Source of the DNA: Dehalococcoidia bacterium
GTDB lineage: Bacteria; Chloroflexota; Dehalococcoidia; SM23-28-2; RBG-16-64-32
Direction: 5' to 3'
Assembly (NCBI GenBank): GCA_034432935.1
Contig: DAOUBD010000005.1
Location: 1,054 to 65,053 of the forward strand
DNA length: 64,000 nt
The position numbers and the translations under genes are program-made. Within the stretch, counting starts at the first letter, position 1; the number at the start of each line of letters is the position of its first letter. This document shows positions 4,862 through 32,702 of this stretch, one piece after another. The notes beneath the pieces were generated by a model, which was not told the origin of the DNA, searched no databases, and saw only the letters and a list, made by a program, of their open reading frames with translations.

Positions 4862-6325
4862 ATGCCCAAACAGAAGGTCATCTCCCGGCAGACCGCCGCC
4901 AGCGAACTGGGCGGCGACTATAAGTGGGGCTTCGTCACAGAGATCGAAGAGGACGTGGCCCCCAAGGGGCTGAACGAGGACATCGTCCGCCTCATCTCCC
5001 GCAAGAAGGGCGAGCCGGAGTGGATGACGGAGTGGCGGCTGAAGGCGCTACGCTACTGGATGACGTTGGGGTATGAGGAGCCCCGCTGGGCTAAGGTCTC
5101 CTTCCCCCACATCGACTACCAGGATATCTACTACTACGCCTCCCCCTTCAAGGAGAAGCCTCCCGAGAGCCTGGACGAGGTGGACCCAGAGCTTCTGGCC
5201 GCCTTCAACAAGCTGGGGATCCCCCTGGAGGAGCAGAAGGCCCTGGCCGGAGTAGCGGTGGATGCCGTCTTCGACAGCGTCTCAGTGGCTACCACCCTCC
5301 AGAAGCAGCTCGAGGACCTAGGGATTATCTTCTGCCCCATCAGCGAGGCGATCCAGAAGCATCCGGAGCTGGTGCGGAAGTACATGGGATCCGTCGTCCC
5401 TTACACCGATAACTTCTTCGCCAGCCTGAACTCGGCCGTGTTCAGCGATGGCACCTTCGCCTACATCCCGCCGGGGGTGCGCTGCCCGGTGGAGCTGATG
5501 ACCTACTTCCGGATCAACGTAGAAGGCTCGGGCCAGTTCGAACGGACGCTGATCATCGCCGATAAGGGGTCGTACGTGAGCTACCTGGAGGGTTGCACAG
5601 CCCCCGTGCGCAAGAGCCACCAGCTCCACGCCGCGGTGGTGGAGCTGATCGCTCTGGACAACGCCGAGATCAAGTACTCCACCCTCCAGAACTGGTACCC
5701 GGGCGACAAGGAGGGCAAGGGCGGCGTCTACAACTTCGTCACCAAGCGGGGCAAGTGCGCGGGCGTCAACTCCAAGATCTCCTGGACCCAGGTAGAGACG
5801 GGGTCGGCCATCACCTGGAAGTATCCTTCGTGTATCCTCCAGGGCGATAACTCGGTGGGGGAGTTCTACTCCGTGGCCCTGGTCAACAACTACCAGCAGG
5901 CCGATACCGGCACCAAGATGATCCACATCGGCCGCAACACCCGCAGCACCATCGTGGCCAAGGGCATCTCCGCCGGGCACGGCCAGAACACCTATCGCGG
6001 CCTGGTAAAGATCATGCCCACAGCTATCGGCGCCCGCAACTTCACCCGCTGCGATTCTCTACTCATCGGGGATAAGTGCGGCGCCCATACCGTTCCCTAC
6101 CTCGAGGTCAAGAACCCCACAGCTCGCATCGAACACGAGGCCACCACTTCTCGCATAAGCGACGAGCAGCTCTTCTACTGCATGCAGCGGGGCATCTCAG
6201 AGGAGAACGCCCAGCACATGATCATCAGCGGCTTCTGCCGGGGCGTCTTCCAGGAGCTCCCCTTCGAGTTCGCCATGGAGGCGTCCCAGCTACTGAAGGT
6301 GAGTCTGGAAGGAACCGTAGGTTGA
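4862..6325 (+). CDS. sufB: Fe-S cluster assembly protein SufB
   Basis: 487 aa with a SufB/SufD-family beta-helix core and a conserved C-terminal region. It is followed by sufC. Confidence 0.9.
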
Positions 6326-6326
6326 T

Positions 6327-7118
6327 ATGACGGCAAAGCGCAACAATCACCGCCCACCCCTGCTAGAGGTCCGGGGGCTGCACGCCGGCGCCGGCGACGT
6401 CGAGATCCTGAAGGGCCTCGACCTGACGGTGGACGTAGGGGAGGTGCACGCCATCATGGGCCCCAACGGCAGCGGCAAGAGCACCTTTGCCAGCGTCCTT
6501 GCCGGCCGGCCCGACTACACCGTGACGGCAGGCAGCGTGCTCTTCGAGGGCAAGGACCTCTTGGCCATGCCGGCCGACCAGCGGGCGCTCGAGGGCATCT
6601 TCCTCGCCTTCCAGTATCCGGTCGAACTGCCGGGCGTCCGCACCCGGGAATTCCTGCGGGCTGCCCTGGACGCCGTGCGCGAGCACCGCGGGCTGCCCAA
6701 GCTTAGCGTCCGGGAGTTCAACAAGCTCTTCGAGGAGAAGGCGCGGCAGGTAGAGCTCGCCGCCGATCTCCTCAAGCGTTCCGTTAACGAAGGCTTCTCC
6801 GGCGGCGAGAAGAAGCGCAACGAGATACTGCAGCTGGCCATGCTGGACCCCAAGCTGGCCGTATTGGACGAGACGGACTCTGGCTTGGACATCGATGCTC
6901 TGAAGGTGGTGGCCGAGGGCGTCAACCGCTTTCGCGGGCCGGACAAGGCGATCCTCTTGGTCACCCACTACCAGCGGATACTGAACTACATCACACCAGA
7001 CTTCGTCCACGTCCTCATCGACGGGCGTATAGTACGCTCGGGAGGCAGCGAGCTGGCCCACGAGCTGGAGGCCCGCGGCTACGACTGGCTGCGCGAGGCT
7101 GCTGGCGCGGGCGTGTGA
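6327..7118 (+). CDS. sufC: Fe-S cluster assembly ATPase SufC
   Basis: Walker A GPNGSGKST, ABC signature FSGGEKKR, ~260 aa. Confidence 0.9.
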   Translation: MTAKRNNHRPPLLEVRGLHAGAGDVEILKGLDLTVDVGEVHAIMGPNGSGKSTFASVLAGRPDYTVTAGSVLFEGKDLLAMPADQRALEGIFLAFQYPVELPGVRTREFLRAALDAVREHRGLPKLSVREFNKLFEEKARQVELAADLLKRSVNEGFSGGEKKRNEILQLAMLDPKLAVLDETDSGLDIDALKVVAEGVNRFRGPDKAILLVTHYQRILNYITPDFVHVLIDGRIVRSGGSELAHELEARGYDWLREAAGAGV

Positions 7119-26098: not shown

Positions 26099-26623
26099 TC
26101 AGGGCGGCGTTGGCGCAGACCGGATGCGGGTGCCCTGCTTCTTGAGGATGCGGGTGCTGAACAGGACATCGTGGGGAAGGCCTTCCAGGCCGGCCTCGCG
26201 GTTGATCTCCTGGACCTTGTGCAGCACCTCCTCCTGGGACATGCCGTGGACCATGGCGAACAAGTTGTAGGGCCAGCCAGGCCGGCGTGGCCGCCGGTAA
26301 CAGTGGGTGATCTCCGTCCGTTGCCCCAACCTCGCTCCAACCTCTGATACCCGCTCGTCGGGCACGTCCCACACGGCCATGCCGTTATACCTGACGCCCA
26401 GGGCATAGTGGTTGGGCACCGCCGCCAGGCGCTTGATGATGCGGCGATCCAGGAGAGAGCGCAGCATCGCCAGGACCTCCCCCTCGCCAGTACCCAGTTG
26501 TTCAGCGATCTCCTTCCAGGGCTCGGGGACCAGGGGTATCCCCTCCTGGACGATAAGGAGGAGCTGTCGCTCCAACGGGCTGATGGCAGCCTCCGTACCC
26601 ACGCCTTCCCCCTGTTCCGTCAT
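26099..26623 (-). CDS. Lrp/AsnC-like siroheme decarboxylase subunit (AhbB/NirDLGH-like)
   Basis: Lrp/AsnC-like N-terminal HTH plus a C-terminal domain with ITHCYRRP...YNLFAMVH. It is tandem with, and overlaps, its paralog. Confidence 0.5.
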   Translation of the reverse strand: MTEQGEGVGTEAAISPLERQLLLIVQEGIPLVPEPWKEIAEQLGTGEGEVLAMLRSLLDRRIIKRLAAVPNHYALGVRYNGMAVWDVPDERVSEVGARLGQRTEITHCYRRPRRPGWPYNLFAMVHGMSQEEVLHKVQEINREAGLEGLPHDVLFSTRILKKQGTRIRSAPTPP

Positions 26624-27130
26624 CCCTGGTGTCCCGTAGCGCCGTTCTCGTCAGCGTCCGGCAGCTCGTAGTAGAACTCGACGCGGTATTCCTCCAGGGT
26701 CGGGAGGTTGAGGACCTCGAGGCCAGTCTCCCTCTCGATCTCGCTGATGACGCGCTGCACCGCCTGTGGGTCTTCCGAGGATACGACGAACCACAGGTTG
26801 TAGTGGTGGGTGCGCTCGTAGTTGTGAGAGATCTCCGGGTGGCGGTTGATGGCGGCGATGACCTCGTCCAGCCGTTCGGGGGGTGCGGCCACGGCGGCCA
26901 GGGTGCGCTCTCCCCCCAACTGGGGCGCGTTGAGGATGGCGCCCAGGCGTGTCAGGCCCCCTTCGTCCAGCAGGCGGCGCAGGCGGCGTATCACATCTTC
27001 CTCGGTCGTCCCGACGGCGCGGGCGGCCTCCAGATACGGGCGCGGCGTGAGGGGTATGCCCCTCTGGAGCAGGTTTATGAGGCGCCGGTCGCTGCTATCC
27101 AGATACACCGCGTCATCGATCCTCTGGCGC
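26620..27130 (-). CDS. Lrp/AsnC-like siroheme decarboxylase subunit (AhbA/NirDLGH-like)
   Basis: Contains ISHNYERTHHYNLWFVV. The longest ORF (to 27219) overlaps the acyl-CoA dehydrogenase stop, so the true start is probably internal with a non-ATG codon. Confidence 0.5.
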
Positions 27131-27136
27131 GTGTTG

Positions 27137-28911
27137 TCATACCGAGGCGGGCAGGGCCTCTGGCGGCAGCGGCTGATAGCGGGTGATGGGGGCGAAGAGG
27201 TCCAGCACGGAACGGTCATCGCTGATGGCCCGCATGGGGCCGCTGCGGGCTGCCAGGAGCCGGTCCCGAATGAAGAAGCGGGCGACGGCGGCCTTGCGGG
27301 CTGAGCCTGTCTTCCGCATCTCCTCCTGGGCGGCTTCCAAGAGGAGCGACGCCTGCGTGAGGTCCGAGAGGAAGGATGTCACGCGCCGGGCGTGGAGCTG
27401 CCGCAGGTCGGCGTCTGCTCTAGCCAGGAAGAGGATCATCTCTTGGGCATCGCGCCGGGCCTGGAGCACAGCGTCCTTGAGTTGGGCCAGCGCCGGGTGC
27501 TCGACGCCTGCGAGCGCCCGGTCTACGCGGTCCAGGAGGGCGTCGTGGGCGTTCTCCTTGGCCATGGAGCGCAGGACGTCCAGGCAGATGATGTTCTCGG
27601 TGCCCTCCCAGATGGTGTGGCATTGGGCGTCCCGCAGTTGGCGGGCCGTGGGCCAGGTCTCGACGTAGCCGTTGCCGCCGAGGATTTCCACGGCCTGGCT
27701 GGCCAGCTCCAGGCCGCCGCGGGCGCCCCGGAACTTGGCCAGGGGCACCAGGATGCGGTAGAGGCGGCGGCCCTTTTCGTCTCCGGTGGCCCCGGCTAGG
27801 GAGGCGGCCTCGAAGACCATGGCGGAGGCGCCCTCCAAGGCCACCACCATCTGAACCAGCGTCTCCTGAACCATCGGCAGCTCATCCAGGCGCCGGCCGA
27901 AGGCCGTGCGGTGGGCCGCGTAGATGGCGGCTTCCAGGAAGGAGCGCCGCATGATGCCCAGCCCCATGGTGGCCACCCCCAGGCGCGACCCGTTCACCAT
28001 GCTCATCATGCGGTTGAGGCCCCGTGCCTCGGAGCCGGCGTCGCGGTTAGGGTTGCTCAGGATGTAGGCCTCTGCATCGATGAAATCGACCTCGGCCGTG
28101 GGCACCGAGCGCGTCCCCAGCTTGTCCTTCAGCCGCTTGATGCGGATGCCGTTGCGGGTGCCGTCGGCGCGCTCCGCGGGCACCAGGAAGAGGGCCAGGC
28201 CCCGCACTCCCGCCTCGGCCCCCTCGGGGCGCGCCAGGGTGGCGATGGCCTTGGCGTCAACGTTGGAGCAGAACCACTTGGACCCGTTGAGCAACCAGCG
28301 GTCGCCGTCCCGGCGGGCCACCGTCTCGCTGGTGCCGAGATCAGAACCGCCGCGGATCTCCGTCATGAACATGGCTCCATCCCAGGAGCCGTCGAAGGTG
28401 GGCGATTGGAGGTGTGGCAGCACCCTCTCCTTGATCTCCGGCGAGCCCCAGCGCGAGACCAGGAGCTCGACGCCGCTAGTCATCCCCGTAGCGCACACCA
28501 TGCCGGTGTCGCATTGACTGAGAAGGTAAGTGAAGGCCGAGCCTAGTACTGTGGGGATGGGCTTGCCCCGGCGCGCCGATAGCCCCTGGGGCCCTTCGTT
28601 CCATATGTCGCGCTTGCTCTCGATGGCGTCAGGGTGGTGAACGATGGTGCAGACCTCGTTGCCCCAGGCGTCGTAGCGCTCCAGGCGCGGCGGGTTGCGG
28701 TCGATCACCTCCGCCCGGCGCGCCAGGGGCCCGCCACAGAGTTCGCCCCAGCGCACCAGCGTCTCCTCGGCCCACTCTCTGTCTTCGGCCCCGATGTACC
28801 GGTCCGCTATGTCCCGCAGGTTGGGGTCGATGAGGTACCAGTTGAGTCCTATGGCGGACTCAAAGCTGCTATAGTCGATGCCCTCGCCGTTGCTCCTAAG
28901 CCTATCCATTG
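27137..28911 (-). CDS. acyl-CoA dehydrogenase family protein (AidB-like, long N-terminal domain)
   Basis: ACAD middle and C-terminal domains (GTSETV..., GGNGYVETWP). The start is taken at MDRLRSNG. Confidence 0.7.
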
Positions 28912-29003
28912 TGGCTCTCCTCTCTCTCTCTGCTGCCAGGTTGGTGGTGCGTCCCCTTCCGACTAGTATAGCGCCTGCGATGCCGGGACGCCGGCGCCCG
29001 CCG

Positions 29004-30089
29004 CTACTCCGCTCCAAGAAGCTCCACGTCGAAAATGAGCGTAGCGTTCGGAGGGATCGCCGGAGGGCTGCCAGAGGCCCCGTACGCCAGCTCCGGCGGT
29101 ATGATAAGCCGCCGCTTGCCGCCCACCTTCATGGAGGCGACGCCCTCGTCCCAGCCGGCGATCACCTGGCCCCGGCTCAAGAGGAACGAGAGCGGGCTGG
29201 CCCTGTCGATGGAAGAATCGAATTTGGTCTGGCTGCCGGCGAGCCAACCGGTATACTCCACCGTCACCTTCTGTCCTGGCTGCGGGGCGGGCCCCGTGCC
29301 CTCCTGGATATCGATGTACTGGAGGCCGCTAGGGGTGGTAACGGGCGTGCCGCTCACGGGCGGGGGCGACTCTGGCGCTGGCTCACGCACGTCCACCAAC
29401 TGCACATCCATCACCAGTGTGGCGTTGGGGGGGATGGCCGGCGGCGAGCCCTGCTCACCATACCCCAGGCTGGGTGGTATGAGGAGCTTGCGCCGGCCGC
29501 CGACCCTCATAGTGGCCACACCCTCCTCCCAGCCTTTGATGACCTGGCCGCTGCCCAATCGGAAGCCGAAGGGGCGCCCCCGGGCGACGGTGCTGTCGAA
29601 GACATCGCCCCCTTTGACCTTGCCCACGTAATGCACGACCACCACCTGGCCCTCCTGGGGGGCTGGGCCATCGCCCGTCACGACGTCCACGTACTTCAGG
29701 CCGCTGGGAGTCGTGACGGCCCCGGAGAACTCGTCGCTGCCCCGCAGGGCGGCTGCCAGGACCAGGGCGCCGCCTACCGCCGATGCTAGTCCGCCGGCCA
29801 TCAGGAGCCACGGCAGCCAGGATGGGATGCGGGCCCAGCGGGCCGCCCGCCTCTCCCGCGCCTGCGCCAGGGCCAGGGCCCGCGCCTGGTCGTACGCTGC
29901 CCTCCGGCGCGGGTCGTCGAGCGTATCGAAGGCCTCGTTGATCTCGCGCATCATCGCCGGGTCCCTCGGCGCCTTGTCAGGGTCCGGCTGGTATCGCCGG
30001 GCTAGGCGCTCGTAGGCCTGGGCGATCTGCTCACGGGTGGCCTGGGGTCCAACCCCCAGGACGGCGTAGTAGTCCTTGTGGCTCGTCAC
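29004..30089 (-). CDS. membrane protein: N-terminal J-domain, one TM helix, two FKBP-type PPIase domains
   Basis: J-domain DYYAVLGV...[12 protein letters not shown], a TM helix [25 protein letters not shown], and two FKBP12-like domains ([21 protein letters not shown]...; [21 protein letters not shown]...IFDVELL). Confidence 0.75.
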
Positions 30090-30976
30090 GGCGATGGGCT
30101 GGCTGGAGGCTGCGAGGGAGCACTGGCCGTTGGTACCGGTGTGGCCTTCCTGAAGATATCGACTAATTCGACGTCAAAGATCAACGTGGCGTTGGGCGGT
30201 ATCTTGGGCGGCGAGCCGGTAACCCCGTAGCCTAGCTCGGGCGGGATGATGAGGCGGCGCTTGCCACCCTTCTGCATCGTCGCTAGGCCCTCGTCCCAGC
30301 CCTTGATTACGCTTCCGGTTCCCAGGACGAAGCTGAAGGGGGCGGCGCGCTCCACCGAGCTATCGAACTTCGTGCCGTCGGACTGGAGCCAACCCGTGTA
30401 GTTGACCACGACGGTGTCGCCCGGCGATGGCGGGTCGCCCGTGCCGGGCTGGATATCGATGTACTGGAGGCCAGAGGGGGTGGTGACGGCTTCGCCCGTG
30501 ACCTCTGGCGGGTTGGCCGGCGCCACTCCCGGCGTCTGGGCCGGCAGCGTCGGCGTGGGGCTGGCCGGGGCGACGCTGGCGCTGACCGTGGGCTGGCTGA
30601 CGGCGTTCTGGCCGCCGCCACCGCCGGTGAGGGATGCCACTATGACGGCGATGATGATGAGGACGGCTATGCCGAGGCCGATGCCGCCCAAGAACTCGGG
30701 CCGCGCTAGGAAGTCGGAGAACGCCGACTCCTGCGCCTCGACGGCGGCGCCCGGTTTGCGGCGGGAGCGGCGCCGGTCGTACTCTGCCCGGCGTTTCGGG
30801 TCCTTGAGGACGGCGTAGGCTGCCTGAAGCTCCTCCCAGCGCTGCCGCGCCTTGGGTTTGCGGCTCGTGGCGGGATCGTAAAGGCGCGCCAGCCGCTCGT
30901 ACGCCCGCTCGATCTCCGCCTGGCTGGCCGAGCGGCTCACTTGCAGCACGGAGTAATAGTCTCGCTGTTTCTCCAC
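30086..30976 (-). CDS. membrane protein: N-terminal J-domain, one TM helix, Pro/Thr/Ala-rich linker, one FKBP-type PPIase domain
   Basis: J-domain DYYSVLQV...[13 protein letters not shown] helix [20 protein letters not shown], and an FKBP domain [19 protein letters not shown]...GWDEGLATM...[12 protein letters not shown]. Its start overlaps the upstream paralog's stop. Confidence 0.75.
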
Positions 30977-31097
30977 GTACTGGTACCTCGGAGTTGATCA
31001 GGATCGCCCAACGTGCGGCGTGAGAACATTGTACAGGAACGGCCGTTGAGCGCCACCGTCTGGCTCGCCCGCTGCGGTTGCCTCTTGATCCAGACTG

Positions 31098-32702
31098 ATG
31101 CACCCTATAGCCGTGCCTGCCGCCGATCTGCCAGCCGTGGTCCGGGCGCTCTTGCGCCCTGATGCCTACCTCCACCCGGTGCAGCGCGTGGAGCTCCGCC
31201 AGACTCACATCTCTTTCGTCCTTTTGGCTGGGGAGTACGCCTATAAGGTGAAGAAGGCGGTGAACTTCGGCTTCCTGGACTACTCCACCCTTGCCAAACG
31301 CCGTTTCTACTGCCAGCAGGAGGTATCGCTGAACTCCCGCCTTTGCTCGGGGACCTACCTGGGCGTCGTGGCCGTACGGGAGGAGGCTGGGCGTGTGAGG
31401 ATGGGCGGTTCCGGCAGAACGATAGAGTACGCCGTACAGATGCGGCGCCTTCCGGCCGAGCGCATGATGGACCGTCTGTTGGCCGAAGGCAAGGTGACGG
31501 AAGAGATGGTCCGCAATCTGGCCCGCGTGCTTGCTGATTTCCACGGCCGGGCCGAGACGAACGCCCGAATAGCGGCCACCGGCCTGAAGGGGATCCGCTA
31601 CGCTTGGGAAGAGAACTTCCGCCAGTGGCAGCCCTTCATCGGCCAGACGATCTCGCCGGAGCAGGACGCCGCCCTGCGGGCGTTTGGCCGGCGCTTCTTC
31701 GCGCGCAAGGGGGCCTTCCTGGCGGCCCGCGCGGACGGCGGCCGGGTGCGCGATTGCCACGGGGACCTGCGCTCCGACAGCGTCTGCTTCGTGGACGGCC
31801 TCTGCATCTACGATTGCATAGAGTTCAACCGCCGCTTTCGCTACACGGACGTGGCGGGCGACGTCGGCTTTCTGGCTATGGATCTGGACTACCGGGGCCA
31901 CCCAGAGCTGGCCAGGGCGTTCGTAGATGAATACGTGCGAACCTCGGGCGATGCCGGGCTCCTGGAGGTAATCGATTTCTTCAAGTGTTACCGGGCGGCG
32001 GTCCGCGGCAAGGTGGAGGGCTTCCTTCTGGCGCAGGCGGAGGTGCCGGCCGCGGAGAAGCGCCGCGCCCGGGCTGCGGCCAAGCGCTATTTCGATCTGG
32101 CCTGCCAGTACGCGCGGGCTCACGCTCCTCCCCTCTTGCTCATCACCTGCGGCCTCTCTGCCACCGGCAAGTCCACGCTGGCCCGGGCCCTGGGCCAGAA
32201 GATCGGCGCAGAGGTGATCTCGTCCGACGTCGTACGCAAGCGCTTGGCCGGCCTGGAGCCAACGCAGAGGCGGGAGGAGCCCTTCGGCCGCGGAATCTAC
32301 GGCCCGGAGTTCACGGAGCGCACCTACGCTGCCCTGCTGGATGCCGCGCGGCGCGCCCTGGACGCTGGCCGGCCGGCCATTCTCGACGCCACGTACCTGC
32401 GGCGGACGCACCGGCGCCAGGCGCGGCGGCTGGCGGAGGAGCTGGGCGCTGAGTTCGCCTGCGTCTACCTGCGGGCGGAGGATGCCCTGGTCCGGCGCCG
32501 CATCGAGAAGCGGCTTCGGGAGGGGGCGGACCCTTCGGATGCGGGCTGGAGCGTCTACGTGCGGCAGAAGCGGCGCTTCCAGAGGCCGAGCGAGGTGCCA
32601 GCGGAGCGTCTCATCACGGTGGACGCTGCCCGTCCTGTGGCCGCGCAGGTGCGGGCTGTGCTGGACGCTTTGCGCAGGCTGTCGCCCCACTCGTTGCCCT
32701 AG
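31098..32702 (+). CDS. bifunctional aminoglycoside-phosphotransferase-like kinase / P-loop ATP-binding (AAA_33-like) protein
   Basis: N-terminal half has the APH-like Brenner motif HGDLRSDSV plus DCIEF. C-terminal half has Walker A GLSATGKST and a zeta-toxin/PNK-like fold. Confidence 0.65.
   Translation: MHPIAVPAADLPAVVRALLRPDAYLHPVQRVELRQTHISFVLLAGEYAYKVKKAVNFGFLDYSTLAKRRFYCQQEVSLNSRLCSGTYLGVVAVREEAGRVRMGGSGRTIEYAVQMRRLPAERMMDRLLAEGKVTEEMVRNLARVLADFHGRAETNARIAATGLKGIRYAWEENFRQWQPFIGQTISPEQDAALRAFGRRFFARKGAFLAARADGGRVRDCHGDLRSDSVCFVDGLCIYDCIEFNRRFRYTDVAGDVGFLAMDLDYRGHPELARAFVDEYVRTSGDAGLLEVIDFFKCYRAAVRGKVEGFLLAQAEVPAAEKRRARAAAKRYFDLACQYARAHAPPLLLITCGLSATGKSTLARALGQKIGAEVISSDVVRKRLAGLEPTQRREEPFGRGIYGPEFTERTYAALLDAARRALDAGRPAILDATYLRRTHRRQARRLAEELGAEFACVYLRAEDALVRRRIEKRLREGADPSDAGWSVYVRQKRRFQRPSEVPAERLITVDAARPVAAQVRAVLDALRRLSPHSLP

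Follow-up and report, generated by a model that had tools for sequence, protein, structure and literature searches.

Does the overlapping pair of membrane protein genes found in a Chloroflexota bacterium encode Hsp70 co-chaperones that reach across the cytoplasmic membrane, as its domain content first suggests? The two genes, here called A and B, lie on the minus strand of a 64,000-nucleotide stretch of contig DAOUBD010000005.1 from a Dehalococcoidia bacterium (the window), and each joins an N-terminal DnaJ-like (J-like) domain to a single transmembrane (TM) helix and to one (A) or two (B) FKBP-type peptidyl-prolyl isomerase (PPIase) domains. A preliminary description of this DNA had read them as tandem paralogues in which a cytoplasmic J-domain recruits Hsp70 while the isomerase works outside. 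The analysis presented here keeps the architecture and the topology and gives up the recruitment: both J-like domains have lost the histidine of the His-Pro-Asp (HPD) motif, and A and B are probably translationally coupled, type II anchored extracytoplasmic FKBP foldases whose J-like domain serves in cytoplasmic docking or assembly and does not activate Hsp70. The parts of the pair, with the basis of each assignment, are as follows, the side of the membrane being predicted throughout.

30086..30976, minus strand: gene A, J-like domain, TM helix, linker and one FKBP domain; 296 residues, GTG start (open reading frame (ORF) list, Pfam, AlphaFold2)
30776..30961, minus strand: A, cytoplasmic J-like domain (residues 6-67), four-helix J fold (Pfam DnaJ, model, Thermus DnaJ2 match)
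30869..30877, minus strand: A, DPA tripeptide (residues 34-36) at the HPD position (alignments)
30626..30694, minus strand: A, single TM helix (residues 95-117) (hydropathy, model helix 99-117, positive-inside statistics)
30488..30625, minus strand: A, linker, Gly-rich then Pro/Thr/Ala-rich (residues 118-163), predicted disordered (sequence, predicted local distance difference test (pLDDT) below 50 for residues 118-135)
30152..30487, minus strand: A, extracytoplasmic FKBP-type PPIase domain (residues 164-275) (Pfam, pocket residues, pLDDT 95-98, Foldseek)
29004..30089, minus strand: gene B, J-like domain, TM helix and two FKBP domains; 361 residues, GTG start (ORF list, Pfam)
29889..30074, minus strand: B, cytoplasmic J-like domain (residues 6-67) (Pfam DnaJ)
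29982..29990, minus strand: B, QPD tripeptide at the HPD position (residues 34-36), corresponding to the H33Q null mutation (alignment)
29745..29819, minus strand: B, single TM helix (about residues 91-115) (hydropathy)
29385..29717, minus strand: B, first FKBP domain (residues 125-235) (Pfam, hidden Markov model domain coordinates, pocket residues)
29010..29342, minus strand: B, second FKBP domain (residues 250-360) (Pfam, BLASTP of A against B, pocket residues)
30086..30089, minus strand: GTGA overlap, made of the TGA stop of A and the GTG start of B (sequence)

The J fold itself is well supported. The Pfam DnaJ model (PF00226, cutoff 27.8) matched residues 6-67 of both A (64 bits) and B (59 bits), and the best solved relative of the A domain was the J-domain of Thermus DnaJ2 (E=2e-17). 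The AlphaFold2 model of A, built from 33 aligned sequences with a mean pLDDT of 83, displays a J fold with helices at residues 7-11, 19-33, 43-58 and 60-73 (pLDDT >90), followed by a helix covering residues 99-117, then a disordered linker and finally an FKBP domain at pLDDT 95-98. Alignment to E. coli DnaJ and CbpA placed DPA (A) and QPD (B) at the HPD position, and the solved Thermus DnaJ2 J-domains, used as an independent check, gave the same result, one of the two segments compared reading ARQYHPDVNKSP. In addition to the histidine, A has lost the aspartate of the motif and carries a less basic helix II, with 3 Lys+Arg residues compared to 5 in Thermus DnaJ2.

H33Q is the standard null mutation of a J-domain. 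In an E. coli dnaJ cbpA strain it disrupted the function of all J-domain chimeras that were tested, and it also abolished the ATP-dependent binding to BiP (PMC1906734), and Pam16, a J-like protein devoid of HPD, cannot stimulate mitochondrial Hsp70 and binds and regulates Pam18 (PMC12953747). Since the histidine is lost in both proteins (DPA and QPD), their J-like domains are not expected to activate DnaK, and it is predicted that they should not stimulate its ATPase. Having the J fold without the HPD motif, A and B are, going by their sequences, not J-domain proteins in the strict sense, and the Hsp70-recruiting J-domain of the preliminary description did not hold. Within the window, no DnaK motif and no J or FKBP gene other than A and B was found.

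The altered motif is shared by nearly all of the family. Homologue searches, together with a scan of genomes that used an alignment of J-like regions as query, yielded 98 distinct proteins combining J and FKBP domains, in which the HPD position is occupied as follows.

DPx (A-type): 81 of 98, of which 29 have one FKBP domain, 51 two and 1 three
QPD (B-type): 12 of 98
HPD followed by QPD, in two J domains: 2 of 98
HPD only: 2 of 98
Ambiguous motif: 1 of 98

Any HPD is found in only 4 of these 98 proteins, and the unrelated J proteins recovered by the same scan, which serve as an internal control, mostly kept it. When conservation was expressed as the fraction of the 33 A-type sequences carrying the commonest residue, the J-like domain scored 0.72 and the FKBP domain 0.69, compared to 0.53 for the linker and 0.44 for the TM helix (0.44-0.46 for TM and juxtamembrane regions together), while the loop region at residues 33-46 reached 0.78, with D34, P35, S38, K40, A43 and R46 invariant in the aligned sequences. 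Judged from these alignments, no other part of the A-type protein is under as strong a constraint as the altered loop, which points to a conserved interaction surface other than the Hsp70-activating one, and the DPx and QPD states are conserved ones and not decay.

All 23 genome loci encoding such proteins belong to Chloroflexota metagenome-assembled genomes (MAGs), the closest being a 'Dehalococcoidia bacterium' MAG with 93% identity over the J-like region. The fusion had been presented as a non-standard architecture, and its phylogenetic distribution qualifies that statement: the architecture is common in Chloroflexota MAGs, not rare, while the literature searched, which did not cover the census of Barriot et al. 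2020, held no description of a J-FKBP fusion or of a Chloroflexota anchored PPIase with a DnaJ domain. Public annotation names these proteins 'peptidylprolyl isomerase' only. A J-domain protein census of 2023 dropped every sequence without a full HPD motif (PMC10410713), and the family is absent from it because non-HPD sequences were filtered out.

The fusion is real in both genes, which were found on the minus strand at exactly the positions first described. Orthologues of A share 79-97% identity (P0001-P0004), a protein identical to B is present in public assemblies (P0095), and the same two gene calls were made on a near-identical independent contig (L001). A frameshift or assembly artefact separating the two halves, named at the outset as a finding that would overturn the fusion, is excluded by this contig and by the occurrence of the fusion in 98 distinct proteins of independent assemblies. 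A and B are paralogues, as first described: in BLASTP of A against B, their full lengths align at 39% identity and the FKBP domain of A is 70% identical to the second FKBP domain of B. A GAGG-containing stretch is located about 9 nucleotides upstream of the start of A and nothing Shine-Dalgarno-like precedes that of B, which together with the GTGA overlap fits translational coupling of the two genes; the earlier suggestion of co-translation is thus compatible with the sequence. A promoter and terminator scan of positions 28700-31300 displayed no promoter-like site and a single terminator-like site, within gene B, which is no more than chance would give.

The catalytic part of both proteins is ordinary. 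Pfam FKBP_C (PF00254) matched residues 183-272 of A with 126 bits and two domains of B with 234 bits, so that the profile check that had been proposed returned both DnaJ and FKBP_C in each protein. In an alignment to human FKBP12, Y26, F36, D37, R42, V55, I56, W59 and Y82 are kept in all three FKBP domains, the exceptions in the pocket being H87 replaced by Ser in all three, F99 by Met in the first domain of B and F46 by Leu in the second. The pocket is thus essentially intact in the one domain of A and the two of B, in agreement with the FKBP12-like signature initially noticed. Foldseek placed the modelled FKBP domain of A closest to a Burkholderia Mip-like PPIase (about 60% identity, root-mean-square deviation about 1 A), then to FkpA (52-53% identity) and FKBP12, with a probability of 1.00 against FKBPs. 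By sequence and fold A and B are FKBP-type PPIases, their activity being predicted.

Membership in three named families was considered and rejected. For FkpA/Mip, no FKBP_N match was obtained in Pfam, and the NCBIfam FkpA-type profile PRK10902 was matched over its FKBP part only (profile positions 142-252) with a score below cutoff. For BamJ (NCBIfam NF053689, 184 positions, cutoff 100), the 122 bits of B come from two FKBP matches summed over positions 80-184, the C-terminal half of the profile only, and A remained below cutoff at 69 bits; automated pipelines could therefore mis-name B-like proteins as BamJ, and the same warning applies to their annotation as DnaJ-type co-chaperones. Homology to PpiD or PrsA was rejected as well, with no rotamase or parvulin match in Pfam and an FKBP domain in its place, which makes them analogues of A and B and not members of one family.

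Regarding topology, each protein has one hydrophobic segment, preceded by an Arg/Lys-rich sequence as originally noted, its Kyte-Doolittle mean over 19 residues being 2.94 in A and 1.98 in B; in B, 4 Lys+Arg are found in the 15 residues before the helix and 1 after. A single TM segment, its mean nowhere below 1.98, is present in all 84 distinct family members compared. Over 20 flanking residues, they average 1.89 Lys+Arg on the N-terminal side versus 0.19 on the C-terminal side, the N-terminal side being richer in 74 of 84, equal in 9 and poorer in 1. The nearest FKBP relatives without a J-like domain are 58-71% identical over the FKBP region, and of the 59 J-less relatives that the first homologue search returned, 39 have a signal peptide with a lipobox-like motif, the rest having mostly ordinary signal peptides or being truncated. 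Because these relatives are mostly lipobox or signal-peptide proteins, the FKBP lineage would be extracytoplasmic. Independent support for an N-in/C-out orientation comes from J-like+TM modules, described below, that carry thioredoxin or TPR domains acting outside. The arrangement predicted from the start, a cytoplasmic J-like domain joined to FKBP domains beyond the membrane, is accordingly well supported, by prediction, and the AlphaFold model that had been called for, run on A, shows the same succession of J fold, TM helix, disordered linker and FKBP domain.

The pair itself recurs among relatives. A followed by B was found in eight contexts (the window/L001, L006, L022, L026, L082, L084, L086 and L088), with a 4-base overlap in 5 of 8 and a DPx motif in A in all. 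The B slot varies: it holds a single QPD domain in the window, L006, L022 and L088, a single HPD domain in L084 (P0090), and in L082 (2944-4341, P0133) and L086 (5001-6344, P0069) a canonical HPD domain, then a membrane-proximal QPD domain, a TM helix and two FKBP domains. Between the QPD and HPD forms of B, the J-domains share about 52% identity, compared to about 38-42% with the A-type domains, a likeness suggesting that the histidine was lost or retained within a single lineage.

Several known systems resemble A and B in part. PpiD and YfgM of E. coli share with them, by prediction, a type II N-in/C-out anchor, and PrsA of Firmicutes has a lipid anchor; either kind of anchor holds a PPIase-fold chaperone just outside the cytoplasmic membrane. 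PpiD and YfgM, the latter a TM+TPR protein, associate at SecYEG as a heterodimer in which both partners are anchored by their N-terminus (PMC9643414), a parallel to the tandem A/B pair, and a J-like+TM+TPR protein of Roseiflexaceae is reminiscent of YfgM. On the other hand, PpiD and PrsA carry parvulin domains and short cytoplasmic tails, where A and B have FKBP domains and a folded J-like domain, and an association of A or B with Sec is putative. To our knowledge, no anchored extracytoplasmic PPIase such as PrsA or PpiD has a folded cytoplasmic chaperone-type domain. FkpA, Mip, Mip-like proteins and the Chloroflexota lipoproteins with several FKBP domains possess the same catalytic domain as A and B and are all extracytoplasmic, as predicted for A and B; FkpA and Mip, however, dimerise via the N-terminal helical FKBP_N, missing from A and B, and are soluble or lipid-anchored, and a cytoplasmic J-like domain is absent from all of these proteins. 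On the cytoplasmic side there is a likeness to Pam16/Pam18 (Tim16/Tim14) of the mitochondrial import motor, a membrane-associated pair with one J-like member devoid of HPD. An HPD-bearing partner of this kind is missing in the window (DPA and QPD) and present in L082, L084 and L086, where a DPx A accompanies a B with HPD. Moreover, the J folds of Pam16/Pam18 face the compartment that receives the imported proteins while those of A and B would face the compartment that proteins leave, homology is limited to the J fold, and an A-B heterodimer is putative. Finally, the class C proteins DjlA, DjlB and DjlC of E. coli also tether a J fold to the inner membrane, on its cytoplasmic side (PMC8215388), but keep HPD or HPE and work with DnaK or HscC (PMC10410713, PMC8215388), and they have no extracytoplasmic enzyme domain. 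A and B would thus represent a variant of the anchored extracytoplasmic PPIase with a conserved cytoplasmic J-like domain, an architecture undescribed in the literature searched.

As we picture it, A and B would be translationally coupled bitopic type II signal-anchor proteins, N-in/C-out, of a Chloroflexota (Dehalococcoidia-labelled) bacterium, with FKBP domains placed just outside the cytoplasmic membrane and most likely acting as prolyl isomerase/chaperone foldases for proteins emerging from the Sec translocon, the same job that lipoprotein-anchored multi-FKBP proteins do in sister Chloroflexota and PrsA, PpiD and FkpA elsewhere. The J-like domains would form a specific cytoplasmic docking or assembly module, for instance by pairing A with B, much as Pam16 pairs with Pam18, or by contacting the translocon or targeting machinery; they are probably specific because their conservation equals that of the catalytic domain and the loop of A, D-P-x-x-S-x-K...R, is its most conserved part. 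Architecture, motif states, conservation, distribution and synteny are direct observations on which this picture builds, and the predicted topology, the foldase role and a partner for the J-like domain are plausible deductions from them. We consider this reading of A and B as docked, anchored foldases probable, and several points weigh against it: the topology comes from hydropathy and positive-inside charge statistics; the interaction of A with B is pure conjecture; most genomes carry A alone; B retains the Pro and Asp of the motif, and its helix II has four basic residues, so that weak or non-stimulatory binding of DnaK by B is conceivable; three relatives in the B slot (L082, L084 and L086) keep a canonical HPD domain, and some Hsp70 coupling may be ancestral to the J-FKBP system; and the genes next to the pair, described below, have no evident link to folding and were treated as inherited gene order.

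The same points feed the reading first proposed, in which functional J-domains recruit and activate DnaK at the membrane and link Hsp70 to an outside prolyl isomerase. The DnaJ matches well over threshold, the confidently modelled J fold, the Pro-Asp and basic helix II of B and the canonical HPD in its slot, as the sole J domain in L084 and as an extra N-terminal one in L082 and L086, all speak for it, and such a trans-membrane co-chaperone might exist in the small number of relatives with HPD. For the window locus it is quite improbable, as neither protein has the histidine, the exchange of His for Gln abolished function in all chimeras tested and BiP binding (PMC1906734), A is further altered in its motif and helix II, HPD occurs in so few family members, and the window has no other J-protein or DnaK gene. 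A reading that we regard as possible, though rather doubtful, sees in the J-like domain a partnerless cap, compact, basic and fast-folding, that enforces the N-in orientation and replaces the lipid anchor of the sister proteins. Related FKBP proteins do work with a lipoprotein anchor alone, FKBP, thioredoxin and TPR domains are all found on J-like+TM anchors, and conservation is low in the TM and juxtamembrane regions; yet a topogenic cap has no need of a near-invariant loop or of conservation equal to that of the catalytic domain, nor of two separately conserved J-like types, DPx and QPD, kept side by side.

Pro/Thr/Ala-rich linkers are common in exported proteins. The one following the TM helix of A is of this kind, and it adds to the evidence against an opposite arrangement, in which the segment would be N-out/C-in or not span the membrane, leaving the FKBP domains in the cytoplasm and both halves with cytoplasmic chaperones. 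The only moderately hydrophobic segment of B and a topology drawn from hydropathy and charge leave some room for such an arrangement, which is nevertheless extremely improbable: no signal peptide stands ahead of the folded, basic domain of 70 residues, the charge bias is N-in in 74 of 84 members with the reverse in 1 of 84, the other members of the FKBP lineage are lipoproteins or secreted proteins, and the parallel anchors carry ResA/CcmG-like domains acting outside. A bolder extension of the docked foldases, which we hold to be unlikely, would have the J-like domains, and in some genomes true HPD J domains, that Chloroflexota fuse through a TM helix to outside maturation factors (FKBP PPIases, ResA-like thioredoxins and TPR proteins) work as a trans-membrane relay, the J-like domains of A and B assembling as in Pam16/Pam18 at the translocon and gating a cytoplasmic chaperone or targeting activity, or coupling it, to folding beyond the membrane; that the window holds a version of this relay having lost its Hsp70-activating member is just as unlikely. 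If true, the relay would be a bacterial counterpart of the J/J-like import-motor modules of organelles.

Anchored extracytoplasmic PPIases such as PrsA and PpiD have a role in secretion and envelope biogenesis. Here a conserved J-like domain is repeatedly combined with folding catalysts predicted to act outside, across a phylum of poorly understood envelope biology, and it differs from a working J-domain at the very residue deciding Hsp70 activation. The natural HPD, QPD and DPx variants found in one orthologous slot form a ready series for the study of J-like function in bacteria.

The genes on both sides of the pair are the following.

27137..28911, minus strand: downstream neighbour, AidB-like acyl-CoA dehydrogenase (Pfam, gene call in L001)
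31098..32702, plus strand: divergent upstream neighbour, 534-residue protein with a C-terminal AAA_33 kinase-like domain (Pfam)

A homologue of the dehydrogenase lies downstream in 16 of 23 loci, in 9 of them on the same strand with 73-80% identity, and the gene for the 534-residue AAA_33 protein lies upstream in 16 of 23 loci, as well as in L082 and L084. After the dehydrogenase and on the same strand, at about 26100..27110 on the minus strand (from L001 7840-8849), two adjacent AsnC-type/NirD-L-like helix-turn-helix genes are present, which from their domain content we take to be siroheme-decarboxylase-like AhbA/AhbB. A 776-residue ORF at 30360..32690 on the minus strand, overlapping gene A and antisense to the AAA_33 gene, is a shadow ORF and not a gene; it seems conserved across loci because the real gene lies on the opposite strand, in DNA of 67% GC.

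A and B appear to belong to a broader employment of J-like+TM anchors among Chloroflexota that is undescribed. Tandem pairs of this build were also seen in Roseiflexaceae (L051 5993-6991 and 7021-7869; L068 2037-3035 and 2932-3912), the first protein consisting of a J-like domain (NPD), a TM helix and TPR with a weak CcmH/CycH-like match, and the second of a J-like domain (DPS), a TM helix and an AhpC-TSA/Redoxin, ResA/CcmG-like thioredoxin domain with a WCEPC motif. This J-like+TM thioredoxin family has about 60 full-length representatives, and its J-less relatives are ResA, TlpA and CcmG, membrane-anchored oxidoreductases acting outside the membrane. The Roseiflexaceae pair resembles cytochrome c maturation factors that have been mounted on J-like anchors.

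Other membrane proteins with J-like or J domains were met in the same searches. A polytopic DUF2298 protein of about 940 residues from Chloroflexota MAGs (L034 5278-8112, L043 5278-8097) holds an internal J-like domain with RPA at the HPD position, and a gammaproteobacterial MAG (L081 5233-7490) has three tandem genes for proteins of about 250 residues, each combining one TM helix with a J-like domain that lacks HPD (ESG, DGH and TSR). In Anaerolineae MAGs (L019, L023, L024 and L025, about 5983-6711), proteins of 241-248 residues combine a canonical HPD J-domain with two C-terminal TM helices, and in these LQV replaces LGV.

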